DNA of 64,000 bases from a virus: the IMG/VR virus record IMGVR_UViG_3300009159_005447, positions 6,447-70,446 of that record, one strand, 5' to 3'. Below, one piece after another: positions 32,228 through 63,838 of this stretch. The notes below the pieces were generated by a model. That model made no database searches. It was not told where the DNA came from and was given only the letters and a program-made list of their open reading frames with translations. The stretch's first letter is position 1. Each line of letters starts with the position of its first letter. Position numbers and translations under genes: made by a program.

Positions 32228-32291
32228 TATTGTTGTTTGTTACGGAAACTCTTTGTATTTATGAGTTCCGTTGCTTCACAACTAACAACGA

Positions 32292-32600
32292 TCAGCTGAC
32301 CTTTAATCTTTCCAGGATGATTTGATAGAAACTATCTAATTCCCCGCCAAATCTGCCTACTAAATGGCCGATAAGTTCTTCACAAGGGGCATAGTTCTTC
32401 TGTTTTATATGTTCTACTAAAGTCTGATGTAACTTAGTATATCTATCTATTGATGGTAGCTCATTGGCAGGAATAAGGTCACCGGGTACTAGACAAAAGC
32501 ATTCTAATTTTTGTCCATCAACATCAAAGGTTTCTAGTTCTAATACTATATACCGTTGTGCCAATTCCTCGGCCGACTTCCTGTTAAAAATTATATTCAC
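32292..32600 (-). CDS. hypothetical protein
   Basis: 102 aa, coupled to the upstream exonuclease gene. Confidence 0.65.
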   Translation of the reverse strand: MNIIFNRKSAEELAQRYIVLELETFDVDGQKLECFCLVPGDLIPANELPSIDRYTKLHQTLVEHIKQKNYAPCEELIGHLVGRFGGELDSFYQIILERLKVS

Positions 32601-33142
32601 TTGCGTTCAAATCTAGGTTTAACACCTTGTTGTGCATAAATCTCTTGCACACCTATTGCTTGGTAAACACAATCCATTAAAGCATTGTGTGCATTTTTTC
32701 TATACTTGTCTCGTGGGTCACCAAAGACACCAAACAAAGTTCTACTGTCCCGTACTTGGTAAAATTGCCAAGGGGTGGGTTTACCTATTTGTCTATATAA
32801 GTCTTCGATGATGACCATATCAAAGGCAGGACCTTGACACCAAATTTGGTCCACACCCACCATCATCTTATTAAGAACTTTTGTAAACTGATCGATGCTG
32901 ATACGCCCGTCAATGCCCAGTGCAGCCTCCCGAACTTCTTCAGGTTGTTTGGCCCACCAATCTAGTGTTTCATCTTGGACGTGGCGCCCAAGAGCAGTTT
33001 GCTCATCAACATCAATCTTAACATCCAATCCCTCCTCAGCATCAATTCGTCCGCTAAAAGGATCAAATTTAACAGCACCCACACTGAGTATAACTGCATT
33101 AGGTTTTGTACTTAAAGTTTCAATGTCAAGCATCAGGTCCAT
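32597..33142 (-). CDS. DEDDh 3'-5' exonuclease (DexA/RNase AS-like)
   Basis: MLDIETL, WCQGPAFD, RDSRT, HNALMDC. Confidence 0.85.
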   Translation of the reverse strand: MDLMLDIETLSTKPNAVILSVGAVKFDPFSGRIDAEEGLDVKIDVDEQTALGRHVQDETLDWWAKQPEEVREAALGIDGRISIDQFTKVLNKMMVGVDQIWCQGPAFDMVIIEDLYRQIGKPTPWQFYQVRDSRTLFGVFGDPRDKYRKNAHNALMDCVYQAIGVQEIYAQQGVKPRFERK

Positions 33143-33596
33143 TTTTTGCTTCCGCTTCTGCTACACGTTTGCGTAGACTGGAACTACTAAAGGAATGATC
33201 TCGTCCATTGTAGACAATTTCGATTCCGCGTCTGTGACAAATTTCTTTACCAGTAAAGTCTTTGTCTTTGTATTCTACACCTAGTATACGCACATCCACA
33301 GGCAATGTCAAAAGAATGTCTTCCAAATCTTTTTCTCTGTTGTAAACAACTATTTCGTCTACAAAACGAGTAGCACTTAATTGGATCTGACGCTCCACGA
33401 TACTTTGAATTGGAGAATTCTTTTCCGGACGATCCCAGCTGGCATTGTTTTGTAATCCTGCAATCAAATAATCACAGTGGTTCTTAGCTTCTGCCAACAT
33501 AGCAATATGACCGGCGTGTAACATATCAAATTGGCTAAAAGTGATACCAATTTTCATTCCCTGATCTTTGAGCTCTTTAATCTTATTAAATATCAT
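33126..33596 (-). CDS. cytidylyltransferase (TagD/RfaE-like)
   Basis: FDMLHAGH, DYLIAGL, SSSSLR. Confidence 0.85.
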   Translation of the reverse strand: MIFNKIKELKDQGMKIGITFSQFDMLHAGHIAMLAEAKNHCDYLIAGLQNNASWDRPEKNSPIQSIVERQIQLSATRFVDEIVVYNREKDLEDILLTLPVDVRILGVEYKDKDFTGKEICHRRGIEIVYNGRDHSFSSSSLRKRVAEAEAKNGPDA

Positions 33597-34102
33597 TAGT
33601 TACTGTCCACAAAATCAATTACATTACCTTCTTCGTCGGCGCAGATAATACGAACATTGCCTTCTTCGTCTTCAACCTCCAACGGTCCCCAAACCCATAC
33701 TTCCGTATCGCTTAGGTACCAGTCACCGTCCCCATCTTCTTCTACAGCATACGAACCGTCTTCTTCGATAAGAGCCGTTAAACGGGCAACTTCGTCTTCG
33801 TCCTCGATTCCTTCAATTTCAATATCTCCCCAGCAACCACCATCAAACATTTCAATAAGCTCTGAGCTTTCAATGTTGTTGCCGTACAGGCTGTTTAAAT
33901 CCAGGCTGTCTTTTTTACCATCCCCGCCGGGTACTTCTGTAAATTCAATCTCAGGGAAATTATCGTCACTGGTCTCAATTGAATATTCTGCAAAACGATA
34001 ACCATCTCGCACAATAATTTTACCATCGGTTTCACGATTGTAAAAGTATTCAATTTGTTCGCAAGATTTTTTGTAGTGAGTTCTGATGGTCCATAGTGCC
34101 AT
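33596..34102 (-). CDS. acidic hypothetical protein
   Basis: 168 aa; AAGGA SD. Confidence 0.65.
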   Translation of the reverse strand: MALWTIRTHYKKSCEQIEYFYNRETDGKIIVRDGYRFAEYSIETSDDNFPEIEFTEVPGGDGKKDSLDLNSLYGNNIESSELIEMFDGGCWGDIEIEGIEDEDEVARLTALIEEDGSYAVEEDGDGDWYLSDTEVWVWGPLEVEDEEGNVRIICADEEGNVIDFVDSN

Positions 34103-34175
34103 TATAGTTCCTTTAGAAAAACTTAATTTTACACTATTTTTTTAACAATGCCAAGTATTTCGGCAAGAGTCAGTG

Positions 34176-34280
34176 TTATTTGGTGCCGCAGTTACAACTG
34201 CGTCCTTGGACACAGTTTTGGTTACAGTGTGGGTTTGGTTTGAAGAATTCTTTAAAGAATCCTAGTATAGACTTGATCAT
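34176..34280 (-). CDS. 34-aa Cys-rich peptide, not in ORF track
   Basis: MIKSILGFFKEFFKPNPHCNQNCVQGRSCNCGTK*; ATGA overlap with the clpS stop. Confidence 0.55.
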   Translation of the reverse strand: MIKSILGFFKEFFKPNPHCNQNCVQGRSCNCGTK

Positions 34281-34591
34281 TCTGCTTCAAGTTTAACTTG
34301 TAGTGGGAACCCGTGACTACGGGCTAAAATGGTAACTTCAATGCCTTTTTGCTCAGCTAATTCATAAGGCATAACAGCAACTACAGCAGATCCATCATCG
34401 TGAATCTTTTGAGTTAATTGCATCGCAGATTCTCTGGATATATCAAACACGCTAACTAAACTTTCAACCACAAATTCCATTGTAGTAGTGTCGTCATTAA
34501 GATATATAACTCGAAACAAACTAGGCTCCTTAAAGTCAGTGTTTGGGTTAATTTTTGGTTTTATAATAGTGTCTGTGATAGCATCTGTCAT
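34277..34591 (-). CDS. clpS: Clp protease adaptor ClpS
   Basis: VIYLNDDTTTMEFVV, IHDDGSAVVAV, AEQK, FPL. Confidence 0.9.
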   Translation of the reverse strand: MTDAITDTIIKPKINPNTDFKEPSLFRVIYLNDDTTTMEFVVESLVSVFDISRESAMQLTQKIHDDGSAVVAVMPYELAEQKGIEVTILARSHGFPLQVKLEAE

Positions 34592-34630
34592 TAATATCTT
34601 TCAAAATGCGGGGTTTCCCCCGCATTGTAT

Positions 34631-35083
34631 TTACTTGTCGGCTGAAGTGATTGCAATTTTACGTGGTTTCAATCCCTCGGGAATTTCGCGTTCAAGATTG
34701 ATAATTAGCATACCGTTCTTGATTACTGCATCCTTGACAATTACGTGATCACCCAACGGAATGGTACGTTTAAAGCTACGGGTACTAATACCCTTGTAGA
34801 TATAATTTACCTCATCTTTGTTGGCAGATTTTTCCCCGGTAATGGTGAGGTTATTACCTGCTACGTCCACATCAATCTCATCCAATTGAAAACCGGCAAC
34901 TGCAACCTCTAGGGCAAAGTTGTTGTTATCATATTTGATAATATTGTATGGAGGGTAGTTAGTACTGGTGTTTGATAATTGTTCGTGTGTACGAGCCAAT
35001 TGTTCAAATACCTCGTCAAACCCTACGGTAAAACGAGTTAGTGGTGAAAAGTCTATACGACCTATTGTTAGTCTTTCTGTCAT
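34631..35083 (-). CDS. small heat-shock protein Hsp20 (IbpA-like)
   Basis: YPPYNI, LEVAVAGF, YKGISTRSFKR, NGMLII. Confidence 0.9.
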   Translation of the reverse strand: MTERLTIGRIDFSPLTRFTVGFDEVFEQLARTHEQLSNTSTNYPPYNIIKYDNNNFALEVAVAGFQLDEIDVDVAGNNLTITGEKSANKDEVNYIYKGISTRSFKRTIPLGDHVIVKDAVIKNGMLIINLEREIPEGLKPRKIAITSADK

Positions 35084-35171
35084 TTTTATCTCCTTATTAA
35101 GCAAGACTTGTGTAGGGCCCGATTATCGGCACCCTACATTTAATTATACTAAATTAGCTAGCATTTGTCAA
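35084..35171 (-). promoter_or_regulatory. sigma70 promoter plus ROSE-like RNA thermometer leader of hsp20
   Basis: TTGACA-17-TATAAT; hairpin TGTAGGG..CCCTACA; TCTTGCT-TAATA-AGGAGA anti-SD hairpin. Confidence 0.65.
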
Positions 35172-35173
35172 CA

Positions 35174-36799
<1,626 letters not shown>

Positions 36800-37081
36800 T
36801 TACTCGATGATTGCCAACACATCTTCTTCTTTTAAGACGATATGTTCTTGATTATTGATTTTGACTGTTTGTCCAGCAAATTTGCTATACATAACTACGT
36901 CGCCTTGTTTAACTTCCATTGGAATGACAATACCCTCATCGGTAACTCTGCCAGACCCAGCTGCCACTACAGTACCCCTTAGGGGTTTCTCTTGTGCATT
37001 GTCTGGGATAACAATGCCAGACGCTGTTACGCTTTCGCCTTCTAGCGGTTTGACTAAGATTCTATCTCGAGTTGGTTTCAT
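36800..37081 (-). CDS. groES: co-chaperonin GroES (start MKPTRDR)
   Basis: [26 protein letters not shown]. Confidence 0.95.
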
Positions 37082-37085
37082 AATT

Positions 37086-38984
37086 TTAATCCTTCTTGAC
37101 TTCTTTAACTTCCGCATCAACTACATCAGCTGGTGCTTGTGCTACTTCTGGACTGGCTTCTGGCTTTTCAGCCTCAGACTTGACCTGCATAAGTGGGCTA
37201 GTAGTTTGTACGTATTCTCCAATCTTAGCATTGATATCATTGGCGTCGTCTGCCTTCATTGATTCCTTAAGAGCAGTCAAGGCCTCATTGATTTTAGTCA
37301 ACTCTTCCACTTTGATCTGACTTCCGTATTTTTCAATGTCTTCGTCAAATTGATTGATTACACCTTCTGCGCTGTTACGTGCTTGTACCAGCTCAATGTG
37401 CTTCTTATCGGCTTCGGCATTAAGTTCAGCATCCTTGACCATTTGCTGAATTTCAGCTTCGGTTAGTCCACTGTCGCTTTTAATGGTAATATTATTAGCT
37501 TTGCCAGTGGCTTTGTCTGTGGCACTAATCTTCATAATGCCATTGGCATCAATGTCAAAGGTAACTTCGATTTGTGGTTGGCCACGACGTGCAGGTGCAA
37601 TTCCATCTAACTTAAACTCACCCAATACTTTGTTGTATTGGAATAGTTCACGCTCACCTTGTGCCACTTTAATATCAACTGCTGGTTGATTGTCGTCGGC
37701 GGTGCTAAACACTTGACTGTGTTTGGTTGGAATGGTTGTGTTCTTGGCAATCATCTTAGTCATTACACCACCAAGAGTTTCAATACCCAAGCTCAATGGT
37801 GTAACATCAAGTAATAGAACGTCCTTACGATCGCCACCTAGTACAGCACCTTGTACAGCGGCACCAGCGGCCACTGCTTCGTCTGGATTAACATCCTTGC
37901 GCGGCGCTTTGCCAAACAGTTTCTCAACGACTTCTTGCACCTTGGGCATACGTGTCATACCACCAACAAGGATAACTTCGTCAATGTCGTTGGATGTAAC
38001 GTTTGCATCTTTCATAGCAATCTTGCAGGGCTCTAAGCTACGTTGAATCAATTCGTCAACTAGGCTTTCTAGTTTGGCACGTGACAACTTAATGTTCATA
38101 TGCTTGGGACCAGTAGCATCTGCGGTGACATAAGGCAAGTTAACATCGGTCTGTGCGCTACTTGACAGCTCAATCTTGGCCTTTTCTGCGGCTTCTTTCA
38201 AACGTTGCAATGCTAGAACATCTTTACTTAGGTCAACGCCCTGGTCCTTCTTGAATTCATCAATCAAGTAATCCATAATGCGTTGGTCAAAGTCTTCACC
38301 ACCTAGGAATGTATCGCCGTTGGTGCTTAATACTTCAATTTGCTTGTCGCCATCTACGTTGGCAATTTCAATGATGGATACGTCAAATGTACCACCACCC
38401 AGGTCGTATACAGCAATCTTACGATCTTTCTTGTCTGCTTTGTCTACGCCGTAGGCTAGAGCGGCCGCAGTGGGCTCGTTAATAATACGCAATACTTCCA
38501 GACCTGCAATCTTACCTGCATCCTTGGTAGCTTGACGTTGGCTATCGTTAAAGTAAGCAGGTACTGTGATCACAGCCTGTGTTACTTCGTGACCCAAATA
38601 GTCCTCGGCAGTTTTCTTCATTTTACGAAGAACTTCGGCACTGATCTGTGGGGGTGCTAATTTATTGTCGTTAGCTTCAATCCAAGCATCTCCGTTATCT
38701 GCCTTGATAATTTTATAAGGCATTAAGTTGATGTCTTTTTGTACAGCCTCCTCAACAAACTTACGACCAATTAAACGCTTGGCCGCATAAATTGTGCTTC
38801 TGGGGTTAGTAACTGCTTGGCGTTTTGCACTTGCACCAACTAGTATTTCGTCGTTAGTATACGCAACAATACTAGGTGTGGTTCTAGCACCTTCGCTGTT
38901 TTCAATTACTTTGGGGATTCCGTTTTCTACAACGGCTACGCAAGAGTTTGTGGTACCCAAATCGATACCAATGATTTTGCTCAT
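37086..38984 (-). CDS. dnaK: Hsp70 chaperone DnaK
   Basis: [27 protein letters not shown]. Confidence 0.97.
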
Positions 38985-39040
38985 TTTGTTTCTCCTATGT
39001 TAAGCAAGAATGATGTAAGACCCAATGGCATCTTACAAAA
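38985..39040 (-). promoter_or_regulatory. ROSE-like leader of dnaK
   Basis: Hairpin TGTAAGA-TGCC-ATT-GG-GTCTTACA, then TTCTTGCT-TAACAT-AGGAGAA. Confidence 0.6.
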
Positions 39041-39044
39041 TTAT

Positions 39045-40262
39045 TTATACCTGATCTTTAGTTTTTTTAAATTTTGTTCTAACAATTTCTTCCGTAATTT
39101 CAAGTTTACGTTCGGGCGATTTCTTTAACTTTTCAATGTCAAACAAATACGGTTGTACTATCTGCTCTAGTATACCCTTTAATGCCCTTGCACCACTTTC
39201 TAATTTAAGTGCTTCTTCTGCAATGGCTAATATTGCACCATCTGTAAAACTCAATTCTATGTTGTCAATGTTAAAATAAAATTGTGTCTGTTTAATTAAG
39301 TTATTTTTGGGTTCTACTAGAATACGAACCAGTCCGTCGAGATCTAAATTATCAACCTGTGTGATGATTGGAAAGCGTCCTGTAAACTCGGGAATCATTC
39401 CAAATTTAATAAAATCTTCTTGTCGGAAGTTACTGCGGTCAGTTTTACCTGATCCGGTAACGCTGTTAAATCCAATCTTGGATCCGCCAGCTAACCTTTT
39501 ATCAATGATATTGTCAAGGTCAGTGAACGCACCGGCAGCAATAAACAGAATATTTTTAGTGTCTATTTCCACAGTATCGTTGGCAACGTTTTTGCGATTG
39601 TTGCTAAGTTTAATTTGACACTTTGTACCTTCAACCAGCTTGAGCAGGGCCTGTTGCACACCTTCGCCGGATACATCACGCACCAATGGACTTTCACTGC
39701 GCCGTGCAATTTTATCAACTTCGTCAATGAAGACGATGCCTTGTTCGCATTTTTCTATATCGTACTCGGCTTCGGCTAGCAGCCTACTGATCATACTTTC
39801 AACGTCTTCGCCAACATAACCAGCTTCTGTCAGAGTAGTAGCATCAGCAATAACAAATGGAACTTTAAGGTAGCCTGCAATCTTACGGGCTAACAATGTT
39901 TTGCCTGATCCAGTGGGACCAAAAATTAAGATATTTGACTTTTCAACTTCTGCCTGTGGTTTGAAATATATGCGCTTATAATGATTTACAATGGCTACGC
40001 TGAGTGTAATCTTTGCGGCATCTTGCCCAACAATGTGCGTATCTAAATAACGTTTAACCTTGACTGGATCTAAAACTCCGTTGAGCTTCTTTTCCTTTTT
40101 AAGTTCGTCATTCTTTTCTTTGGTTAAGATATTGCTACAAAGGTCAATGCACTCGTCGCAAATACCAGCGTCATTGGCCACAATAAGTTTGTGTACTTCG
40201 TTGCGGTTCTTTCCGCAGAAGTTACAAAATACAGGTTGTGATGCTTGTAATATATTAGTCAT
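39045..40262 (-). CDS. clpX: ATP-dependent Clp protease ATPase ClpX (start MTNILQ)
   Basis: CNFCGK..CDEC zinc finger, [34 protein letters not shown]. Confidence 0.95.
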
Positions 40263-40581
40263 TCTTTGAAAAATATTCCATTGCAGTAGCGTAAGGTTGA
40301 TCCTTACCAACCCACGTTATTTTACCCAGGACATCGTATAGTGGGATCAACCCTACTGGCTCGGTATTGTCTCTATTAATTATAATATGACTGCACTCAA
40401 GTGCAACCTCGCTTGCCCATTTATTATCTTGCATACCATCGTGATAAAGATATATTGTATACTCTTTATCACAGATACGCAACCAGCGCATTACCATATC
40501 AATGTCGATGGTTGTTGCGTTGAAAATAAGATATGCGTTGGGGGTGTTTGATTTATCCGGGGGTGTTATTACCGTACTCAT
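40255..40581 (-). CDS. hypothetical protein
   Basis: 108 aa, overlaps both neighbours. Confidence 0.6.
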   Translation of the reverse strand: MSTVITPPDKSNTPNAYLIFNATTIDIDMVMRWLRICDKEYTIYLYHDGMQDNKWASEVALECSHIIINRDNTEPVGLIPLYDVLGKITWVGKDQPYATAMEYFSKND

Positions 40582-54940: not shown

Positions 54941-55096
54941 CTAATGTTGCTATTATACAGTATTTAACCTAGCTTGTCAATTAAAATGATGGTTTTTTTG
55001 TGTCAGGATAACCAACAACCCCGGATACACAGCCCATCCCACGTTTCGTGTATCGCGGACGCTGATTCTCAACCTAGGCGGAGGTGGGTCAGCGGT

Positions 55097-55699
55097 TTAC
55101 ATTGTAGGACCGTTGCCGTTCCTAAATCCGATCTCACCGCCTTCGTTGGCGATGCGCTTGTAGACATCCTCCAACAAGATAGGAGTGAAATCTGTTTGCT
55201 CCACGCAAACACAATGGTAACGGACATCGTTTTCGTCCCCGTACAAAATAGCACCAGTACGAGCATCAACGCCACGTGCCTTCTTGACACGATTTGTGTG
55301 CAAGTGACCGTGAATGTTAACACCAAACCGCCCCAATGATGCTTCGTGTACAGGAATATGACTCAAGATCATTCCGTTCAATACGTGATATGCTCTCAAT
55401 TCACGAAAGTACCTGCGGTACTCCTCATCACGGAAGATGTCGTGGTTGCCACGGATCAATACCTTGTCACCGTTCAATCGATGCAATATGGGCAAGGCCT
55501 TGCGGTTGATCACAACATCACCCAAGTGATAGACCTTGTCGTTGGGACGAACTGTGTCGTTCCACCGGCGTACCATTTCCTTGTCCATTTCGTCAGGGTC
55601 GGTCCAGGGACGGATCTTTGTAACTCCATCTTCTTCGGTAAAGCGGCACACACCGGCGTGACCGAAATGCGTATCACTGACTAAAAATGTTGCTGGCAT
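55097..55699 (-). CDS. calcineurin-like metallophosphoesterase
   Basis: SDTHFGH, HLGD, RGNHD, SH, HGHLH. Confidence 0.85.
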   Translation of the reverse strand: MPATFLVSDTHFGHAGVCRFTEEDGVTKIRPWTDPDEMDKEMVRRWNDTVRPNDKVYHLGDVVINRKALPILHRLNGDKVLIRGNHDIFRDEEYRRYFRELRAYHVLNGMILSHIPVHEASLGRFGVNIHGHLHTNRVKKARGVDARTGAILYGDENDVRYHCVCVEQTDFTPILLEDVYKRIANEGGEIGFRNGNGPTM

Positions 55700-55714
55700 T
55701 GTGTACTCCTTTCT

Positions 55715-56188
55715 TTAATTAAACCAAATCTCATCAAAGCCTTCCTCAACAGTGGGTGGCTCCACGCTTAAATCAATTGCCATCTGTTCTACTACATTCT
55801 GCGGAATAACTTTGCCTGGACGGCTGGCCAATCTACGAGCAAGTTCTTCTTTTTCAGGTGTCTTGAACACCACGGCAATTTTGTAGTAGTCGGGTAGCAT
55901 ACGAAACTTTCTTGCACGACTTGCAATAGAGGTACTGGTTTGATCCCAGATAATATCTTTACCTGCATCACGTGCGCCATTTACTGCACCAGCCATTTTG
56001 GCCACTGCAACAGGCATATATTCTTCAAATACTTCGCTGTAGGTTTTACCCACAGTCTCGGCCCATTCCTCCACGTACTTGTCTGTGGATACGTATGCAC
56101 AATCGTCAAACCATTCTTGCGATTTTGCCCAGGTGCTTTTACCCGAAGCAGGCACGCCAACCAGTACATAGAGTTTTCTTTTTTCCAT
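55715..56188 (-). CDS. P-loop kinase (AAA_33 / polynucleotide-kinase-like)
   Basis: GVPASGKST, STD, WDQT, EEGF. Confidence 0.8.
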   Translation of the reverse strand: MEKRKLYVLVGVPASGKSTWAKSQEWFDDCAYVSTDKYVEEWAETVGKTYSEVFEEYMPVAVAKMAGAVNGARDAGKDIIWDQTSTSIASRARKFRMLPDYYKIAVVFKTPEKEELARRLASRPGKVIPQNVVEQMAIDLSVEPPTVEEGFDEIWFN

Positions 56189-56247
56189 AGCTGTATTATA
56201 GCAGATACCTGCTGGTTTGTCAACCGAAAATTATGTAGTAATTAGTA

Positions 56248-57426
56248 TTACCTGCAGAATTCGCTGAGATCGACGCGATATCCGTCAATGTATTCACGCA
56301 TTAACTCGCGACCGTGAAAGGCATAGCCTGCAGGTCCGTTGTGAATCACGTGCCGTGACCAATTGACAAATCTATCTGAACTGTGCAATCTCTTTTTGCC
56401 AGCTTCAATGGCATAGCGCCAGAATGGTGTGTCCAATTTGTTTTCGCCTACGTAGTTGATGGCAATCAAATCCTGTATGTACTCCACGTGGTCCAAGTAC
56501 ATACGATTGACTATGTTCTCAACACCCCAGGCATTGTCTGTGTTTGCCAACGCTTCGCAAAAACGTTTGGTTAATAACATATAAAAATGCAAAGGGATAG
56601 CCTGGTGCGGTTCAAAGAAATAAAGCCTATTGCCCATAGACAATATCCTACCAGCTTGTGCCTGTGTTTTGTAGTAAGGCGCCCAGGAGAACTTGCGTAG
56701 CGGTTCTGTGTCAATGTCTTTGATAGCGGCAAACTTGGCCTTGGCTTCGTCTAGGCTGGTAATTGCGTTATTGTACAAATAGCCCCAGGCTTTTCTATGC
56801 TGTAAGGGTACACCAAACATCCATCCATTGTCGTGGATGTAGCTGGATGTATAAGGTTCATTGTAGCGTTGAAAATCAGGATACAGTATAACAGAGTTAA
56901 CAGAAACAAACTGTGGTTTATTGTATTCTACACTGTTTAATTCTTCTGCCGAAGGCGTTCCGCGGCAATCAATTACATAGTTAAAGGAGTAAGCATCTTT
57001 ATCACCTCTAATGGTGGCCGCATATTCAACCTGCGTGATACTTTTAACATTCTCTGGAACCATTGTAAAATTCTCGTAGAGTTGTTCAAGTCTTTCAAAT
57101 ACAAAGGCACTGAATTTCTCGCTGTTGACGTGCAATCCCGGTGCGGCATAGCGTATGGTAAAATCTTCACCGTGTGCCGCAGTCCAATTGTATTTGGTAC
57201 AATATCTTAAGGTACCATCGATCTTGTCTAGGTCTGTTAAAGGATCAAAACGAATAGCTTCGTACATCAGACCGTATATAGCGGCACTGGCGCTTTCGCC
57301 TACGTGAGTAATGGGGATATCAGGATTGTAAAAACAAGTTACCTCAACGGACTTGGGTAAGTTTGTTAATAAAGTTGAAACGGCAACTGCACTGGCGGTG
57401 CCAACGCCTACTATTCCAATTTTCAT
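56248..57426 (-). CDS. tryptophan-halogenase-like flavoprotein (divergent)
   Basis: IVGVGTAS, VGES, IDCRG, GWMFGVPL, FFEP. Confidence 0.75.
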   Translation of the reverse strand: MKIGIVGVGTASAVAVSTLLTNLPKSVEVTCFYNPDIPITHVGESASAAIYGLMYEAIRFDPLTDLDKIDGTLRYCTKYNWTAAHGEDFTIRYAAPGLHVNSEKFSAFVFERLEQLYENFTMVPENVKSITQVEYAATIRGDKDAYSFNYVIDCRGTPSAEELNSVEYNKPQFVSVNSVILYPDFQRYNEPYTSSYIHDNGWMFGVPLQHRKAWGYLYNNAITSLDEAKAKFAAIKDIDTEPLRKFSWAPYYKTQAQAGRILSMGNRLYFFEPHQAIPLHFYMLLTKRFCEALANTDNAWGVENIVNRMYLDHVEYIQDLIAINYVGENKLDTPFWRYAIEAGKKRLHSSDRFVNWSRHVIHNGPAGYAFHGRELMREYIDGYRVDLSEFCR

Positions 57427-57440
57427 AATTTATAATTTGT

Positions 57441-57517
57441 TGGTCGGAGTACGAGGGATCGAACCTCGGACCTCCTGGTCCCAAACCAGGCGCACTACCA
57501 GGCTGTGCTACACTCCG
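57441..57517 (-). tRNA. tRNA-Pro(TGG)
   Basis: Cloverleaf, TT-TGG-GA, CCA. Confidence 0.9.
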
Positions 57518-57541
57518 AAATTGTTCTGTTGTATAATGTAT

Positions 57542-58159
57542 TTAAGTAAGTTGACGTTTGAAGGGAATATAATGATTGTAATTTGTATTTACTACACGGT
57601 CAATTGGCACAATATCAAATGCAATAGTAATGCGTTGGCCTGATTGCATCCATTCACTGCTACGATGCTCGTCTCCGGCGCTACGACCAAACACCAATAA
57701 GCCGTTTTTATTATCTACATTGTAGACAACGTTTTTGTTGTTGACAAATCGATAACTGGTTGTGGTGTTGTTGGCATTGACACAATAATATCCGTGAATA
57801 ACGGAATCGCTTTCTTCCCAATGCCCGTGCCAGTCAATGAATTCACCAGATCTAAAAATGTTGGCCCAGGCCTGTATAACGTAAGACTTGTCTTTATGTA
57901 AAAACGGTTCTATGTTGTCCAGTAAACAATAGTATAATTTAAAAAAGTTTTTATCAGTAAATGTGAGTATGTTGTACTCTTTAAAGATAGAAGTCATATA
58001 TGACCCAAAAAAACTAAGATCCTGCGGCTCGGGAAATCGTTTTTTTAAAATTGATTCGGCCTGCAAACAAAGATTATACAGTGCTTGGTTATCATTGTTG
58101 TGACCTGTATCAATGGTCCAAAGATAATCTGGTATAATTGTTTTGGTGTCTACTGACAT
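57542..58159 (-). CDS. 2OG-Fe(II) oxygenase-like protein
   Basis: AWAN...WHGH, GYY, H, RITIAFD. Confidence 0.75.
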   Translation of the reverse strand: MSVDTKTIIPDYLWTIDTGHNNDNQALYNLCLQAESILKKRFPEPQDLSFFGSYMTSIFKEYNILTFTDKNFFKLYYCLLDNIEPFLHKDKSYVIQAWANIFRSGEFIDWHGHWEESDSVIHGYYCVNANNTTTSYRFVNNKNVVYNVDNKNGLLVFGRSAGDEHRSSEWMQSGQRITIAFDIVPIDRVVNTNYNHYIPFKRQLT

Positions 58160-58163
58160 AAAG

Positions 58164-58237
58164 TGGAGCGGGGTAAGAGAATCGAACTCTCAGCATTAGC
58201 TTGGAAGGCTAAGGTATTACCACTATACGAACCCCGC
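58164..58237 (-). tRNA. tRNA-Gly(TCC)
   Basis: Cloverleaf, CT-TCC-AA, CCA. Confidence 0.9.
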
Positions 58238-58288
58238 ATAAGTTATCTTGTAAAATATTTATTAATTAATTATTGATGTGATTTAATT

Positions 58289-59086
58289 TTATTGGACCGC
58301 CCACTGTTGCATCATTGGAAACACATCTGTGGTCCAGAACTTTGGACTGTTGTGTACAACGTGATGAGAATCTTGGTAGAAATTATTTTTGTATTTTAAA
58401 AACTTTAAACCAGACTGGGTAGCAGTATCTTCAAGCCATTCGTAATTTGGGTCTCCAAACCTGTCAGAGCCAAAAAATGTATCGCCAAGTACATACACCC
58501 AGGCCTGGCGAGTAAACTTAGTAGATTTTTCAAAATAATATCTAGTAAACTTTGTTCTCTGCTCGCACTTGGCGCTCCAGACTCCCACTAGATTAATTAC
58601 ACCGTGAACATCTTGTGGGTACTGCGATGAGTATACTGCACTTAAGAATCCACCACGACTATGCCCCATTAAAAAAACTTTGTTAACCTTGTACGATACC
58701 TTGGCCTGTCTAATAACTTCTTTAAGTTGGTCTTCGGCTTCAAGATATTGTTCTTCTAAGTTGCGTATGCCACAGCCTTGTTTTTCTTCTGTGTAGGCGC
58801 CTTCACTACCGCCCCGACCTTTACGCATATAGGTTAAAAAGATGTAACCTGCATCAGTCATTTGTCTTGCAATGTCAACAAATTTTAGCACATCACGAGG
58901 ATACGGGCCGGCACTGCCGTGATTCATAATAACAACTTGTCCGTTCCATTTTGCAGGACGGTACTCAAATGCCTGTAGGTTGTACGTGGAGTCTGCATCT
59001 TTGTACTTAATAACCATTTCGGTTTGGGCCTGGCTTTGTGCAGTTAAAAAAAGTAATACTAAAGTACTAATAATTTTAGTTAACAT
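58289..59086 (-). CDS. secreted alpha/beta hydrolase
   Basis: Signal peptide; NHGS, RKGRGGS, GHSRGG nucleophile elbow. Confidence 0.8.
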   Translation of the reverse strand: MLTKIISTLVLLFLTAQSQAQTEMVIKYKDADSTYNLQAFEYRPAKWNGQVVIMNHGSAGPYPRDVLKFVDIARQMTDAGYIFLTYMRKGRGGSEGAYTEEKQGCGIRNLEEQYLEAEDQLKEVIRQAKVSYKVNKVFLMGHSRGGFLSAVYSSQYPQDVHGVINLVGVWSAKCEQRTKFTRYYFEKSTKFTRQAWVYVLGDTFFGSDRFGDPNYEWLEDTATQSGLKFLKYKNNFYQDSHHVVHNSPKFWTTDVFPMMQQWAVQ

Positions 59087-59145
59087 TTCTTACCTAAAAG
59101 TTGTTGGTAGAACGTATTATACACTATTTTACACGGTTTGTCAAT

Positions 59146-59221
59146 TGGTGCTCCTAGATGGAGTCAAACCATCGTCTCCTCCATACCAAAGAGGTGTTTT
59201 ACCGTTGCAAACTATGGGAGC
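59146..59221 (-). tRNA. tRNA-Thr(GGT)
   Basis: Loop TT-GGT-AT; atypical T-loop TTTGACT; 5' end overlaps the halogenase stop. Confidence 0.75.
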
Positions 59222-60396
59222 TTATTAGCCATTAAACGATCAATAACAGGATACAATTCCATACCTTCTAAGTTTTGATAGAACGAATGTTCGGACCAAG
59301 AACCGTAGGGATTGTGTTTTAAAAGACTTTCTATTTCCAGGTGCTGTCTAGTACCTAGTGTACGAGATCTTTCAATGAAATTTCGTAACGCTGGCGTTCT
59401 GTACAACTCTCGTTGAAAACATCTCTCTGCACGTTCTTGTGCAAAGTCCCAGAATTTATTTTTGTACACAGAGCCGCCTAGATAATGCAACATAATCATA
59501 CCTTCAATTTCTTGAATAGTATTTAGGTATCCTGCGTTGGCCTGCTCTGGGCTGACAGTGCCGACTATTACATCAAAGGCTATACGATGTACAATGTCTG
59601 CAAAGTCCAATGACGTTGCTTCCAATGGTTCTAGAAAGAACGATGAATTGCCATTGTGTGCAACACGGTCTGTAAAATTCTGTCGTCTAAAATAATTATC
59701 AAATTCAATATAGTTGGTCGTATCGCTGGCGGTTAATCCAAACTCTTCAAATACTTCCTTTACATCTTCTTTGATTTCGTCTAGGCTGTTGATGTCTCTG
59801 TTAAACAGATACCCTATAGAGCATCTATTCTTTAAAGGAATACCAAATATCCATCCATAGGGTCTGGCCACACTCAGCGTATGATTGAACTTTGGACCAT
59901 CCCAGAAGCACTGTGTAACATAACAACTGTTAACTGGAATAAACTCCGACCTATGAAAGTCATCAAATTGCCTAGGTGATCCTGTGCAATTTAGCACATA
60001 GTCTGCGTCAACTTGATCGGGCGTTACTGCACGTTCAATGACATTGATCCTTGGATCATTTTTAAACTTGTCAAATATAAAGTCTTGCAATTTAACTGCA
60101 TTGATATGGTAGCCAATGCTGGGCGGTAAGAATGCGTGTAAAAATGTTTTACCTGTGTTCCAACCTTTTTTGTATATGCCCAACTTTGCGGTGCCATCGA
60201 TCCTATCTAAGTCGGTATAGATAAAACCAGTGTTGGCATACAATGCTGTACTAACTCTGATTGTGCCGCCTTCACCGACTGCCACAGGCTTGGTGTTAGG
60301 ATCGTGGTACCAATCAATTTCAAAATTACTCCAGCGCCAAAAATGTGCTAGAGTCAATGCACCTGCGGTGCCTCTTCCAATGATTGCTAATTTCAT
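59212..60396 (-). CDS. tryptophan-halogenase-like flavoprotein (start MKLAII)
   Basis: IIGRGTAG, VGEG, GTAKLG, GWIFGIPL, FLEPLEATS. Confidence 0.8.
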   Translation of the reverse strand: MKLAIIGRGTAGALTLAHFWRWSNFEIDWYHDPNTKPVAVGEGGTIRVSTALYANTGFIYTDLDRIDGTAKLGIYKKGWNTGKTFLHAFLPPSIGYHINAVKLQDFIFDKFKNDPRINVIERAVTPDQVDADYVLNCTGSPRQFDDFHRSEFIPVNSCYVTQCFWDGPKFNHTLSVARPYGWIFGIPLKNRCSIGYLFNRDINSLDEIKEDVKEVFEEFGLTASDTTNYIEFDNYFRRQNFTDRVAHNGNSSFFLEPLEATSLDFADIVHRIAFDVIVGTVSPEQANAGYLNTIQEIEGMIMLHYLGGSVYKNKFWDFAQERAERCFQRELYRTPALRNFIERSRTLGTRQHLEIESLLKHNPYGSWSEHSFYQNLEGMELYPVIDRLMANKLP

Positions 60397-60408
60397 ATTG
60401 TATTTAAG

Positions 60409-60483
60409 TGGTGGTAATGGAGAGAGTCGAACTTTCACCGGGCACCGTATGAAGGTGTTGCACTACCGTTATGCTACATTACC
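60409..60483 (-). tRNA. tRNA-Met or Ile2 (CAT), elongator type
   Basis: Loop TT-CAT-AC; paired G1-C72. Confidence 0.8.
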
Positions 60484-60560
60484 ATATGGAAACACACTAG
60501 CCTGCAGGACTACTAATAGCTCACGGGTACGCCGCTACTATTAGGTAATGTGTTTTCATA

Positions 60561-60634
60561 TGGTAGGGGTGCTCGGGAACGATCCGAGTTTTACTGGTTA
60601 AAAGCCAGTTACTTCACCTTAAAGTTTCACCCCC
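60561..60634 (-). tRNA. tRNA-Lys(TTT)
   Basis: CT-TTT-AA; atypical T-loop ATCGTTC. Confidence 0.75.
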
Positions 60635-60637
60635 ATA

Positions 60638-60712
60638 TGGTCCCTCCGGTGAGATTTGAACTCACACTTCTCGGATTAAGAGTCCGGTATGCTACCGTAA
60701 CATCTCGAAGGG
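60638..60712 (-). tRNA. tRNA-Lys(CTT)
   Basis: CT-CTT-AA, CCA. Confidence 0.8.
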
Positions 60713-60817
60713 ATGGATCGTAAATGTTTGTCTTTTACGTGCCATCCAGGACCATACGGGGTCTAGGATGACACTAGAGTTTACCTCGTTTCATATCATA
60801 TCCTTGTTTAAAAATGT

Positions 60818-60846
60818 ATTATAGCATCCTTTTAGTTGATTGTCAA
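60818..60846 (-). promoter_or_regulatory. consensus sigma70 promoter with extended -10
   Basis: TTGACA-17-TATAAT with TG at the extended -10 position. Confidence 0.8.
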
Positions 60847-60877
60847 CTAAAGACCCTGATGCTGGTAGGGTCAAATT

Positions 60878-60952
60878 TGGCCGGCTCTGAGAGGATCGAA
60901 CTCCCACCCTCTGTTTCGAAGACAGAGATGATATCCATTTCACCAAGAGCCG
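60878..60952 (-). tRNA. tRNA-Arg(TCG)
   Basis: CT-TCG-AA, CCA. Confidence 0.85.
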
Positions 60953-60956
60953 AATT

Positions 60957-61556
60957 TCAGCGCCAAGAGAAGTTAAGTACACTACGAACTTTTTTCGTAG
61001 GTAAAGTACTGCTGTGGTACTGGCTTCCGGGAAACATTACAGCTGATCCTCTGACAGGGTTAACACGTTGTATTTCTGTAAAAGATTTGTATTTTTCTTT
61101 TACTTGGTCCGGAGGAACATTGTAAAATGTTTCATTAAAAATAACTGTGTCGCCATCACAATTGTCAGTGACATAGTATACACCAGTATGGTATGGTACA
61201 GGATCTTCTAAGTCAGTGTGAATCAAATTGTGTTTGCGGCTGGTAATAATTGGAAACTGACAAATAGCCCGCACCTGAAGAAATTCTGTAAATGGCGTGC
61301 CGCTTAATTGGATTAGTTCATATAGCAAAGGTTTGACAAAATCAAAATGTGGGCTAACGTTGCTACCCCAGGCCTTATACTGGAACATATGAAACATCAC
61401 ACTAGATGTTTCTACACGTTCATCTTCGTGCGTGGTTTCATAGGTAAAATGCCAAGGCATAGTGTTTTCACCAACAAATCTATGCTCTAATTCTGCTTGA
61501 TATTGTTTAGATATTACATTGTGAACCACTAAGGGTTTATCTAGAACCTGACTCAT
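60957..61556 (-). CDS. 2OG-Fe(II) oxygenase
   Basis: IHTD (HxD), YY...DGDT, YHSS, RSVLNF. Confidence 0.8.
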   Translation of the reverse strand: MSQVLDKPLVVHNVISKQYQAELEHRFVGENTMPWHFTYETTHEDERVETSSVMFHMFQYKAWGSNVSPHFDFVKPLLYELIQLSGTPFTEFLQVRAICQFPIITSRKHNLIHTDLEDPVPYHTGVYYVTDNCDGDTVIFNETFYNVPPDQVKEKYKSFTEIQRVNPVRGSAVMFPGSQYHSSTLPTKKVRSVLNFSWR

Positions 61557-61573
61557 TGAATATTACCTTAAAT

Positions 61574-61649
61574 TGGCTCCCCGACCTGGGCTCGAACCAG
61601 GGACCTGCGGATTAACAGTCCGTCGCTCTACCGGCTGAGCTATCAGGGA
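61574..61649 (-). tRNA. tRNA-Asn(GTT)
   Basis: CT-GTT-AA, G73, CCA. Confidence 0.92.
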
Positions 61650-61699
61650 ACATTAACAAGTATATATGCCAACAGTGGGTGCTGGCAATTAAATAAGCA

Positions 61700-61912
61700 A
61701 TGAGCCTAAAGAACAACATTCAGCTCATCCAAGAAATTCTCAACAAATTACCCAAGGATGGCAGAGATACACCTAAGCAAACAATCTATGAGCTGGGATA
61801 TCTCATTGGTATGTTAGCCAGGCTGGCTAACGAAGATCATTTTGTATTTGGCTCACTTAAAAGAGAACACGAGAAGCTTGAAGAAAAAAACAAAAAAGAT
61901 GGCGCACCGTAG
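61700..61912 (+). CDS. hypothetical protein antisense to the tRNA cluster
   Basis: TAAATA at about 61690; 70 aa helical; stop overlaps the 3' end of tRNA-Asp. Confidence 0.5.
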   Translation: MSLKNNIQLIQEILNKLPKDGRDTPKQTIYELGYLIGMLARLANEDHFVFGSLKREHEKLEEKNKKDGAP

Positions 61913-61976
61913 GGGACTCGAACCCCTGGCCTCTTGCGTGACAGGCAAGCGATCTAACCAACTGAGCTAACGGTGC
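61900..61976 (-). tRNA. tRNA-Asp(GTC)
   Basis: CT-GTC-AC, G73, CCA. Confidence 0.92.
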
Positions 61977-61981
61977 CAAAC

Positions 61982-62058
61982 TGGAGCACAGGGTGGGACT
62001 CAAACCCACGGCTTTACGGATTTGCAATCCGGTACATTGGTCGCTCTGTCACCTGTGC
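61982..62058 (-). tRNA. tRNA-Cys(GCA)
   Basis: TT-GCA-AA, U73, CCA. Confidence 0.85.
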
Positions 62059-62066
62059 ATAATACT

Positions 62067-62156
62067 TGGCGGAACGACTGAGACTCGAACTCAGAAAGCG
62101 GCTTTCACCACTCGACGGATTAGCAATCCGCTCCAATACCATTATGGGACCGTTCC
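62067..62156 (-). tRNA. tRNA-Ser(GCT)
   Basis: Long variable arm, TT-GCT-AA, G73. Confidence 0.88.
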
Positions 62157-62372
62157 AAAATTAGTGTCTAGCTACTTGTCACCACAACAAGCCCTAGACT
62201 GAGCAGTTACTCTGTCCATAACATTTATTCTTCTGGGAAGGTTGTTAGTCCTCACCCTAGGCAGTTTCCAGTATCCCTTAAATAGGGGCTGTGAGGTCAG
62301 GTCCTAGTGTACCCCCTGTTCTATCGTTTCAGGGACGCTCTTATTATAACGTAAAAGAGTAAACCGGGTTTT
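62157..62372 (-). ncRNA. candidate structured ncRNA A (paralogue of B)
   Basis: No credible ORF; multiple stems; 3' ~75 nt similar to 62459..62534. Confidence 0.55.
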
Positions 62373-62458
62373 TGGTGGAGACGGATGGATTCGAACCACC
62401 GCGCTTTTTAGGGGCGAGATTTACAGTCTCGTGCAATCAACCACTCTGCCACATCTCC
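62373..62458 (-). tRNA. tRNA-Tyr(GTA)
   Basis: Long variable arm, CT-GTA-AA. Confidence 0.9.
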
Positions 62459-62729
62459 AAAATTAGTGTCAAGCTACCTGGTTCCCACCATTAGCCCTTG
62501 ACGCGAGCTGTTACTCTGACCATTCCGTTTATTCTCAAGTCTGTGTGCAGTTGGAATTCTGCCTATCAGAGTCTGAGTATTTCTCTCGCTAACGGTTTTC
62601 TGCCACCGGATCTCTCTCGTTAATCAAACGCCACTGTAACAGAAGTGGTACCGGGATAGGGTTGGGCCAAGATTGCAGGACCTAGTGTCTCATTGCTGAG
62701 AGAAGTATCCAGGCGGTATGGCCCAAATT
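62459..62729 (-). ncRNA. candidate structured ncRNA B (paralogue of A)
   Basis: Shares the 3' domain and ACACTAGGWCCTG with element A, with a compensatory change. Confidence 0.55.
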
Positions 62730-62804
62730 TGGAAGAGCTACGGGGAATCGAACCCCGCTTTACGGGATGAAAACCCGCTGTCCTAACCGATAGACGATAG
62801 CTCC
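62730..62804 (-). tRNA. tRNA-Glu(TTC)
   Basis: TT-TTC-AT, CCA. Confidence 0.88.
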
Positions 62805-62811
62805 ATTTAAA

Positions 62812-63035
62812 CTAACACATTGAAGCATATAAGGGAACCATTGCGGATCTTATTCTACACGACTTGCGAGGTCGGGTCACCGCGGTCATTACGTTGCAGA
62901 TTGCTCCATCGTCCTCCTGATACGATCTCAAGGTTTCGTGTAGCCCAGAGTGGTGTACGGCGCCCCGTATCTTTGTTGAACCCTCTAGTACCACCTAATG
63001 GATCTGCCAACCCATAATACACTTCAATGTGTTAG
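62812..63035 (-). ncRNA. candidate structured ncRNA D
   Basis: 14-bp perfect closing stem; sigma70 promoter at 63083-63111. Confidence 0.5.
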
Positions 63036-63145
63036 CTTATTAAATTTTTTAAAGAACATAGTTAATTGCTTAACTAGTCTCTATTATATACGAAAACCAA
63101 TACCCTGTCAACCTCAACGGGTATTGTGTACTTTTGTTTGCTGTT

Positions 63146-63220
63146 TGGTCCCGCCACCAAGAATCGAACTTGGACCTAGGCGTTAGGAGTGCCTTGTTCT
63201 GTCCATTGAACTACAGCGAG
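63146..63220 (-). tRNA. tRNA-Arg(CCT)
   Basis: CT-CCT-AA, CCA. Confidence 0.88.
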
Positions 63221-63299: not shown

Positions 63300-63304
63300 A
63301 TATA

Positions 63305-63455
63305 GGTTTTTGAGAGACCAACTATCTTTCTCAAGGACTCACTGGCTTGTCTCGATTGAAGGAGTTTAACTACCTTGTGTTGCTACTGGTGTGTCAGTCT
63401 CAAGAATAGGGACCTAGCGCACAAGGGACTCAACTTTATCGTCTATCTCAAAATT
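63305..63455 (-). ncRNA. candidate structured ncRNA C
   Basis: Closing stem TTTTGAGA/TCTCAAAA; inner CCTTGTG/CACAAGG. Confidence 0.5.
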
Positions 63456-63609: not shown

Positions 63610-63619
63610 ATAAATTGAA

Positions 63620-63835
63620 TTTGTAAGTAGTTGCGTCCCTCATATCGCAACCATTTTCCCTTGTAATTAAGCCGGCAGGGTCAAGATACGTCACTTGGAA
63701 TACTTAACCAGTACAGTCTCCTTTACAGACCTCCGCGGTTCCCCGCGGGTGGGAGTTGAACCCATTAACCTTCTACTATATCAGTCCTTCGAAGAAACCT
63801 CTATAGCGTGTTGTTCTCTTGCTGACACTTACAAA
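63620..63835 (-). ncRNA. candidate structured ncRNA E with an embedded T-arm
   Basis: Closing stem TTTGTAAGT/ACTTACAAA; internal TGGG-TTCAACT-CCCA. Confidence 0.5.
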
Positions 63836-63838
63836 ACT

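Follow-up and report, generated by a model that had tools for sequence, protein, structure and literature searches.

Two noncoding elements lie between tRNA genes of a viral array

The DNA analyzed here, which we call the window, is the final 64 kilobases (kb) of a 70,446-base IMG/VR record (IMGVR_UViG_3300009159_005447; completeness rating, 19%). It contains 24 transfer RNA (tRNA) genes, every one of them placed on the minus strand by ARAGORN, and two elements, A and B, that fill intervals between these genes. Along the minus strand, the order is tRNA-Glu, element B, tRNA-Tyr, element A, and tRNA-Ser, followed by tRNA-Cys and tRNA-Asp. A and B each encode a member of the same widespread, uncatalogued family, whose noncoding RNAs measure approximately 195 to 215 nucleotides (nt). 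The features of the locus are, in minus-strand order:

63083..63111, minus: sigma-70-type promoter match (TTGACA-17-TATAAT), 12/12 consensus positions, called from the consensus match alone; the nearest upstream
62730..62804, minus: tRNA-Glu(ttc), directly 5' of B (ARAGORN/Rfam)
62459..62729, minus: element B, ending against the 5' end of tRNA-Tyr
62373..62458, minus: tRNA-Tyr(gta), separating B from A (ARAGORN/Rfam)
62157..62372, minus: element A, 216 nt, subtype 1, the interval from tRNA-Tyr to tRNA-Ser
62067..62156, minus: tRNA-Ser(gct), directly 3' of A (ARAGORN/Rfam)

The original prediction, made from the letters of the DNA, had placed each element directly 5' of a class II tRNA, and the ARAGORN coordinates confirm this (A precedes tRNA-Ser, and B precedes tRNA-Tyr). 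It had also judged both to be noncoding, and indeed no open reading frame longer than 41 amino acids overlaps A or B. The reported alignment of the two 3' domains is equally sound: the last ~80 bases correspond nearly base for base, with a T-A to A-T swap in the terminal stem. This likeness is real but not confined to the 3' domain, as ~200 bases of each element follow a common helix plan. The sequence ACACTAGGWCCTG, said to be common to both, does have two exact occurrences, but they are at nonequivalent sites, one in pseudoknot 3 of A and the other in an extra module of B.

A and B belong to a widespread family absent from Rfam

The 19-mer ATGGWCAGAGTAACWGCTC, the core of the family, is present in two copies in the window, compared with 0.04 expected, and, in exact form, in at least 118 viral stretches of IMG/VR. 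We label related viral loci with L-numbers; all counts of sites and loci below are among the matches listed for these stretches. R1, a covariance model of the 3' domain, scored A at 88.2 bits and B at 57.5 bits, with the next match in the window at 6.9 bits. It also found copies in five of five large records of 235 to 364 kb (1, 1, 2, 1, and 1 copies), one of which is complete with terminal repeats.

Sorting by the flanks of the core yielded four subtypes. A belongs to subtype 1, with full-length identities of 85 to 92% to L039, L031, L072, L064, and L043, and the B core (62657-62460) belongs to subtype 2, with identities of 76 to 88% to loci of that subtype. Because each is closer to its own subtype in other phages than to the other element, A and B are old, diverged relatives. 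The description of the pair as paralogous therefore stands insofar as they share a family, but they represent two old, co-occurring subtypes and not recent duplicates, and the match between them is restricted to the 3' domain.

Every copy found came from an uncultured viral contig, the phage records of 235 to 364 kb included. A shorter version of the core gave 18 exact matches among 185,579 prokaryote genomes (one per species), by our own estimate no more than chance, and the family flanks were present in 0 of the 18. In a blastn search of 50,697 deposited phage records, 194 were matched, none covering 80% of the query; all 40 rows listed fall in two short query ranges that are tRNA genes, and some of the records have no tRNA annotation there.

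At the gathering score, Rfam 15 returned no family match for A or B; GOLLD, ROOL, group I intron, RNase P, T-box, hepatitis delta virus (HDV)-like, hammerhead, 6S, and Y RNA-like families were all included. Near the two elements, the only hits at an E value of up to 10 were sX4 (19.5 bits; gathering score, 70) and permuted transfer-messenger RNA (tmRNA) (17 bits; gathering score, 47), both centered on tRNA-Tyr. The suspicion that this might be an uncatalogued class thus held up even at that threshold. Among 22 related loci, twenty gave tRNAs only and two (L044 and L081) gave nothing, again at E values of up to 10. The core motif and the family are likewise undescribed in the literature searched, including the supplements of a survey of structured RNAs in IMG/VR (PMC10690425) with the exception of three files, which may list the RNA among 8,495 IMG/VR candidates. 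We also looked by eye for the partner strands required by group I P7-P3-P8, RNase P J2/4-P4, and the T-box AG box/F box; these were absent, Rfam was silent, and the candidates were rejected.

Covariation supports a chain of H-type pseudoknots around an invariant core

Covariation analysis supported the invariant segment AUGGNCAGAGUAACNGCUC together with serial H-type pseudoknots and a two-step 3' hairpin. Each family RNA consists of several H-type pseudoknots in succession, their crossing loops rich in A, followed by a near-invariant segment of ~19 nt and the two-step 3' hairpin. Both A and B have the serial pseudoknots 5' of the core (pseudoknots 1 and 2 and the pseudoknot 4 pairing just before ATGG), and both continue with the invariant core ATGGNCAGAGTAACNGCTC and then the two-step hairpin with its GG/TAG internal loop. 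The parts of A are:

62338..62366, minus: pseudoknot 1, with stem a (CG 62365-62366 with CG within 62350-62352) and stem b (CTCTT 62355-62359 with AAGAG 62338-62342)
62314..62337, minus: pseudoknot 2, with stem c (CGT 62335-62337 with ACG 62325-62327), stem d (CCCTG 62330-62334 with CAGGG 62314-62318), and the A-rich linker ATAGAA
62254..62307, minus: pseudoknot 3, with stem e (CTAGG 62303-62307 with CCTAG 62257-62261) and stem f (ACC 62295-62297 with GGT 62254-62256), enclosing hairpin g (62269-62291)
62219..62257, minus: pseudoknot 4, in which the loop TAACA (62243-62247) of hairpin h (62235-62257) pairs with TGTTA (62219-62223)
62224-62234, minus: A-rich linker of pseudoknot 4, AGAAGAATAAA
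62201..62219, minus: invariant core ATGGACAGAGTAACTGCTC, invariant in 83 to 84 distinct sequences except at two W positions, which the pattern used to collect these sequences did not constrain
62166..62199, minus: 3' hairpin, with outer stem GTCTAG/CTAGAC, internal loop GG/TAG, and inner stem CTTGT/ACAAG
62157..62165, minus: 3' tail ACTAATTTT, ending at base +1 of tRNA-Ser

The corresponding parts of B are:

62662..62727, minus: extra 5' module, a ~66-nt hairpin motif with outer stem TTGGGCC/GGCCCAA, GNRA inner hairpin TCTCA-GCAA-TGAGA, and internal loop CCTGG/CTAGG; it contains CACTAGGTCCTG, pointed out in the original prediction
62459..62657, minus: B core, ~199 nt, subtype 2, ending at base +1 of tRNA-Tyr (R1, 57.5 bits)
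62609..62653, minus: pseudoknot 1, with stem a (CGG 62651-62653 with CTG 62640-62642) and stem b (CCACT 62644-62648 with AGTGG 62631-62635), and, within the same span, pseudoknot 2, with stem c (CGTT 62627-62630 with AACG 62618-62621) and stem d (GATT 62622-62625 with GATC 62609-62612)
62522..62608, minus: middle part, with hairpin CGGT..ACCG (62593-62608), variable hairpin g (62575-62587), a TCTG/CAGA stem (62567-62570 with 62540-62543), and hairpin h, GCAG..CTGC (62547-62562), whose loop ATTCC pairs with GGAAT (62522-62526)
62505-62523, minus: invariant core ATGGTCAGAGTAACAGCTC, placed by alignment with A and by pair counts
62467-62503, minus: 3' hairpin, placed in the same way

In all three alignments examined, covariation exceeded that in 500 of 500 shuffles, so the claim of a family of structured RNAs is sustained. 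Across the 3' hairpins of all subtypes (84 sequences), 91% of cells were paired and 8 of 11 pairs showed both-sided changes (217 cells); 0 of 500 shuffles scored as high, and slid controls were 15 to 42% paired. The subtype 2 alignment (37 sequences, crossing stems a and d included) was 98.6% paired, with both-sided changes in 11 of 44 pairs (0/500 shuffles as high; slid controls, 31 to 42%), and the subtype 1 alignment (44 sequences; stems e, f, g, i, j, and k) was 92.5% paired, with both-sided changes in 21 of 33 pairs (0/500; slid controls, 31 to 43%). Within subtype 1, such changes affect 5 of 6 pairs of stem e, including the strand ACACTAGGACCTG that had been singled out in A and that forms its 5' side, all 5 pairs of g, and 3 of 5 pairs of helix i (93% paired), and stem f is 100% paired. 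Helices a to d of subtype 2 are 97 to 100% paired, with both-sided changes in two pairs of b, two of d, and one of a; hairpin g of this subtype changes in 3 of 4 pairs, and the other stems of the middle part never vary.

Pseudoknots 1 and 2 are legible in nearly every member, although their helix sequences differ. Stem b, for example, reads CACTTT/AAAGTG, CCCTT/AAGGG, CTATTTC/GAAATAG, or GATTGTTT/AAACAATC, and stem d reads CCCTG/CAGGG, CTCTG/CAGAG, GGAGG/CCTCC, TTGGTAT/ATACCAG, or TGTCT/AGACA. With a simple pseudoknot finder, 89% of 80 sequences reached a score of at least 8 for pseudoknot 1, compared with 32% of 240 shuffles. The loop upstream of the core likewise forms a duplex with the bases before ATGG (best duplex of at least 4.5) in 71% of 70 own pairs versus 21% of swapped ones; in other members this pairing is ATCAC/GTGAT, TACCTTA/TAAGGTA, CCCT/AGGG, CTCA/TGAG, or ATCTTT/AAAGAT. 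The crossing loops are A-rich throughout, an expected property of loops crossing a helix groove. On the modeled fold, the A-rich linkers appear better explained as minor-groove-crossing loops of H-type pseudoknots than as Hfq (ARN)n sites. The core of A, whose sequence never varies, may itself form a mini-hairpin of 4 base pairs (bp), GAGU-AACN-GCUC, according to an RNAalifold prediction. On this evidence, we regard it as almost certain that the family is a real structured RNA family.

Several other pairings were considered. The parse that the automatic pseudoknot finder proposed for subtype 2 is contradicted by covarying alignment columns. Pairing of a 5' GUUAC with the GUAAC of the core is possible in subtype 2 and in some subtype 1 sequences but absent in L056 and others, and it was dropped. 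A GUU/GAC closing stem suggested by RNAalifold has a single informative change, UA to GU in 2 of 37 subtype 2 sequences. MAFFT misaligns some subtype 3 rows, and naive column-pair scans on MAFFT alignments are too noisy to use. Finally, AUGGACAGA also matches two tRNA-Arg genes (in the D-arm region, by our reading), but for a 9-mer ~0.5 matches are expected by chance in the window, and this match was set aside.

Neither ARAGORN nor the Rfam tRNA model called a tRNA-like cloverleaf in A or B. This bears on roles floated in the original prediction, in which the RNAs would be decoys for anticodon nucleases, scaffolds, or mimics of RNA antitoxins; these found no support, the fold not being tRNA-like. 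Phage tRNAs counter tRNA-cutting defenses, and the tRNA array would be a fitting context for a decoy or an antitoxin. The elements, however, have no shape resembling an anticodon stem-loop or a tRNA by the same two programs, no tandem short repeats as in RNA antitoxins, and no adjoining toxin gene, which makes a decoy or antitoxin role very improbable.

Element B carries an additional module

Both stems of the B module covary, and L028 has the same arrangement. In L049/L118 and L095, the module occurs by itself immediately 5' of a tRNA, and this ~66-nt unit has the look of a separate small RNA motif not yet catalogued. On the minus strand, AGGACCU in A (62299-62305) and AGGUCCU in the B module (62677-62683) are mutually complementary over 7 bp; each is also nearly palindromic, with a central mismatch against itself, and the stretch in A overlaps stem e. 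A contact between A and B through these sequences is only an idea.

Such a contact would fit a self-assembling architectural RNA, a small counterpart of ROOL and GOLLD, whose genes likewise lie near phage tRNA islands and whose products assemble into cages of RNA alone. The shared genomic niche (PMC12286853) would speak for this reading, as would the modularity of the family, seen in the added module of B and in subtype 4, which sits within more than 600 nt of conserved noncoding sequence. The family RNAs are nevertheless three to four times smaller than ROOL and GOLLD and resemble them in neither sequence nor model, and the AGGACCU of A overlaps a stem, e, that covariation supports. We consider this explanation improbable.

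The RNA, rather than its neighbors, appears to be the conserved unit

The placement of the elements in phage tRNA arrays, part of the original prediction, was borne out across the family: 43 of 120 sites among the matches listed have tRNAs on both sides within the scanned pieces. The neighbors differ among subtypes, as counted at 85 distinct sites with enough flank:

Subtype 1: downstream tRNA abutting at 6/40 sites; upstream tRNA in range at 21/40 (14 of them tRNA-Thr)
Subtype 2: downstream tRNA abutting at 31/37 sites; upstream tRNA in range at 32/37
Subtype 3: downstream tRNA abutting at 2/5 sites; upstream tRNA in range at 1/5
Subtype 4: downstream tRNA abutting at 0/3 sites; upstream tRNA in range at 0/3
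All subtypes: downstream tRNA abutting at 39/85 sites; upstream tRNA in range at 54/85

The 39 abutting downstream tRNAs comprise 22 Asp, 5 Tyr, 5 Met, 2 Ala, 2 Gly, 1 Cys, 1 Ser, and 1 Asn. The link to class II tRNAs, correct for A and B, therefore fails as a family trait, with Tyr or Ser making up 6 of 39; because most neighbors are tRNA-Asp, the class II neighbor here is a local accident.

No tRNA lies within 1.5 kb of the subtype 4 copies (L044, L055, L081, and L088; core at locus position ~1501-1519). Their surroundings consist of more than 600 nt of conserved noncoding sequence, extending from ~170 nt upstream to more than 330 nt downstream, and this context may represent a larger modular RNA. 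The sequence downstream of the subtype 4 core opens with hammerhead-like words (CUGAUGAG..CGAAAC) that Rfam does not accept. A hammerhead was considered there because the core words CUGAUGA and GAAA lie 3' of the element in all four loci, but partners for stems I and III were not found by eye, Rfam was silent at E values of up to 10, and the candidate was rejected. A different recurring sequence of ~60 to 130 nt, not a tRNA, lies 3' of many subtype 1 copies (L012, L016, L023, L031, and others). It comes in two kinds (ACTTTATAAAAGCTCTTTGAG..GCTACAATGGAAC.. or ACTTTATTAAAATACATTTAAC..) and precedes the next tRNA or gene; these sequences may be further conserved elements.

This pattern of neighbors bears on two alternatives. 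If the RNA were a passive spacer or folding insulator, its fold would stop tRNAs from misfolding and would expose processing sites, and it would have no role after excision. The RNA does fill what might be called tRNA slots, with 0 to 10 nt to the next tRNA. An insulator, however, would not require a 19-mer that stays invariant among subtypes in which every helix has changed in sequence; each genome has only one or two copies of the RNA but dozens of tRNAs, and the RNA is also present where tRNA neighbors are lacking. We think an insulator quite improbable.

The second alternative is a ribozyme that would excise itself from a precursor or act on tRNAs in processing or repair. A size of ~200 nt, several pseudoknots around an invariant core of ~19 nt, and direct contact with tRNA ends are all consistent with catalysis, and the tRNA array also contains an RNA-repair-type kinase and phosphoesterase pair. 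Theta ribozymes, whose cleavage site adjoins phage tRNAs, offer a precedent (PMC10879173). HDV-like and theta ribozymes have a nested double pseudoknot and cleave at their own 5' end, next to a tRNA, whereas the stems here are serial and an upstream tRNA is in range at 54 of 85 sites. The downstream tRNA is no more universal (39 of 85), and no Rfam ribozyme family matched at E values of up to 10. A ribozyme thus strikes us as improbable.

Promoter matches lie at variable distances from the RNA

The perfect match at 63111-63083 is likely the start of the transcript running from tRNA-Glu through B, tRNA-Tyr, and A to tRNA-Ser, judging from its sequence; it lies 422 and 708 nt from the two elements. 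The non-tRNA spacer at 62805-63145 (minus) contains this promoter match followed by a leader of ~270 nt, and contigs identical to the leader (62832-63057) are present in two RNA libraries. Five 12/12 matches to TTGACA-17-TATAAT occur on the minus strand of the tRNA/gene array (54952-63111), at 63111-63083, 60846-60818, 59144-59116, 56223-56195, and 54980-54952, and the same region has 33 promoter-like sites in total, compared with 20.4 +/- 5.5 in shuffles.

Elsewhere in the family, the flank examined contains a promoter match of 11/12 or better at 46 of 68 loci. Its distance from the RNA is 9 to 1,321 nt (median, 558 nt), with 0 to 8 tRNAs between, which argues against a strict leader role. 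In L017, a 12/12 match ends 14 nt before the RNA. Since the RNA in other phages can start right behind a putative promoter of its own, the conserved unit is probably the RNA and not its flanks.

These distances weigh on a further explanation, in which the RNA is a cis-acting transcription element: the nascent knot would bind the transcribing RNA polymerase, like put of HK022, and carry it through the hairpin-rich tRNA array. tRNA arrays extend over long distances without translation, the highly conserved polymerase would be a fitting target for an invariant segment, the RNA starts 9 to 14 nt behind a strong promoter match in L017, L045, and L046, and A and B are themselves 422 and 708 nt behind a 12/12 promoter match. 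Against this, a promoter-proximal position is not the rule, subtype 4 copies have no nearby tRNA, and Rfam antiterminator families show no likeness to the RNA. A cis element is, in our estimation, unlikely.

Contigs from RNA libraries match both elements

The metatranscriptome comparison involved assembled contigs only. A lake-water RNA library (X1) contains contigs identical to 62313-62615, 62586-62796, and 62833-63057, and a library from a second study (X2) contains contigs identical to 62468-62647 and 62832-63003. Two further studies (X4 and X5) yielded contigs 90 to 99% alike to A. Runs X3 and X6 to X24 had small shares and did not enter the comparison. In X1 and X2, contigs cover the region downstream of the predicted start and leave 63078-63193, just upstream of it, uncovered, and contig depth is 3 on the neighboring 61736-61972 versus 21 to 26 on array contigs; we treat both observations as hints only and not as evidence.

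A proposed role for the RNA

Few RNAs are at once large, strongly conserved, and multiply knotted, and the known ones are mostly ribozymes, riboswitches, or ribonucleoprotein cores. We propose that A and B are stable RNAs that are cut from a tRNA precursor and act in trans on a conserved partner, and we put the chance of this chain as a whole at about even. Excision from the tRNA precursor is the probable part, suggested by the way the elements abut mature tRNA ends. Whether the RNA acts in trans or in cis seems to us evenly balanced, and any partner named at this stage is unlikely to be the right one.

According to this proposal, A and B would be cotranscribed with the tRNAs from the consensus promoter at 63111-63083. 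The geometry of the locus suggests that cutting by RNase P at base +1 of tRNA-Ser or tRNA-Tyr would create the 3' ends of A and B and that cleavage and trimming behind the CCA of tRNA-Tyr or tRNA-Glu would create their 5' ends. Copies that lack a flanking tRNA might instead be released by means of their own promoter and a U-rich end. We speculate that the compact knot, with both ends tucked into helices, would resist nucleases and accumulate and that the RNA would then present its invariant 3' domain in trans to a conserved partner. This partner might most plausibly belong to the translation or tRNA machinery (the ribosome, RNase P, or a tRNA-acting enzyme) or to a tRNA-targeting host defense.

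Several observations weigh against this account. Nested minimum-free-energy folds are no better than those of shuffled sequences (z of -0.16 for A and -0.89 for B), and because they give no signal, the structure depends on covariation; several helices and the entire invariant core never vary, so covariation cannot probe them. A downstream tRNA abuts only 6 of 40 subtype 1 sites, and therefore RNase P cannot account for 3' end formation in general. We saw no protein gene that travels with the RNA, although no systematic search was made. The library contigs are silent on the ends, strand, and abundance of the RNA and may derive from DNA, which such libraries can contain; the contig at 62313-62615, which runs from B across tRNA-Tyr into A, fits an unprocessed precursor or DNA as well as it fits processing.

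A bolder version of the trans-acting RNA is an RNA-only machine of giant phages, in which the chain of pseudoknots would carry an invariant active or docking site that acts on the host translation or tRNA apparatus. It could be a new class of ribozyme working on tRNAs or a regulator that binds the ribosome or RNase P, and it would be supplied in fixed proportion to the phage tRNAs, since the same precursor is cut. We hold this version to be an outside chance.

Whatever its role, the family is abundant, is outside Rfam, and occupies the niche of T4 RNA C/D, GOLLD, and ROOL. The window pairs both main subtypes with a detachable module within ~750 bases (tRNA-Glu to tRNA-Ser) and is thus a compact test piece. 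A function, once found, would bear on why phage tRNA islands carry elaborate non-tRNA RNAs.

Other features of the window

The array has further long non-tRNA spacers on the minus strand. One, at 63300-63455, is 156 nt long. Another, at 63610-63838 (229 nt), occupies the interval between tRNA-Thr and tRNA-Gln and is kept in relatives (L028, 90% over 127 nt; L063, 77% over 261 nt; also L010 and L047). It holds the T-arm-like sequence GGGTTCAACTCCC, drew no call from ARAGORN or Rfam, and has a fold z of -1.83; it is probably another non-tRNA RNA of the array. A permuted tmRNA gene of the two-piece type is located at 12832-13148 (minus; Rfam tmRNA_permuted, 97.9 bits; gathering score, 47).

Also within the tRNA array on the minus strand, a gene for a calcineurin-like phosphoesterase (55100-55699) adjoins one for a P-loop AAA_33 kinase (55718-56188), a pair reminiscent of RNA-repair enzymes of the polynucleotide kinase-phosphatase type. 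Two tryptophan-halogenase-like genes (56251-57426 and 59215-60438) lie among the tRNAs as well. Elsewhere on the minus strand are curli-type genes at 1963-6604 (CsgG, with an E value of 1.6e-51, CsgF, two curlin-repeat proteins, and a FecR-domain protein) and a chaperone/protease set at 27269-40310 (ClpP, HSP20, a GroEL-type chaperonin, DnaK, with an E value of 2e-254, and ClpX), and the window also has a superoxide dismutase gene. With DnaK, GroEL, ClpX, ClpP, curli export, and superoxide dismutase, the gene content looks like that of a giant phage.

Comparison with known RNAs

T4 rnaC and rnaD (species 1 and 2), annotated in NC_000866 at 70908-71171, are stable non-tRNA RNAs that, like the family RNAs, adjoin tRNA genes in a phage tRNA cluster. 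They are shorter, at 139 and 119 nt, and rnaC ends in a tRNA-like T-arm sequence, which the knotted family lacks. R1 scored at most 3.6 bits over NC_000866 69500-72500, with no match inside rnaC or rnaD.

In consecutive pseudoknots joined to a tRNA or tRNA-like unit, tmRNA and the upstream pseudoknot domain of tobamovirus 3' ends offer another parallel. In contrast, the tRNAs next to A and B have complete genes of their own.

GOLLD and ROOL are structured RNAs of phages and prophages with multiple pseudoknots, often near tRNA islands (PMC12286853). They share with the knotted family a genomic niche and a pseudoknot-rich style. They differ in being much larger (GOLLD often exceeds 800 nt) and in giving no Rfam match here at E values of up to 10, and the knotted family is not known to form cages.

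Theta ribozymes are minimal HDV-like ribozymes that abut phage tRNAs and are linked to tRNA end formation (PMC10879173). They too are small structured phage RNAs abutting tRNA genes. A theta ribozyme is a minimal nested double pseudoknot, whereas RNAs of the knotted family are ~200 nt long, their stems follow one another serially (in the order a b a' b' and then c d c' d'), and Rfam returned no HDV-type match for them.

Lastly, tRNA operons can themselves be a source of small RNAs. The leuZ 3' external transcribed spacer of a bacterial tRNA operon, released by tRNA processing, sponges small RNAs. Such spacer-derived RNAs are short, weakly structured sponges that act by base pairing, whereas members of the knotted family are large and knotted and are built with an invariant core.

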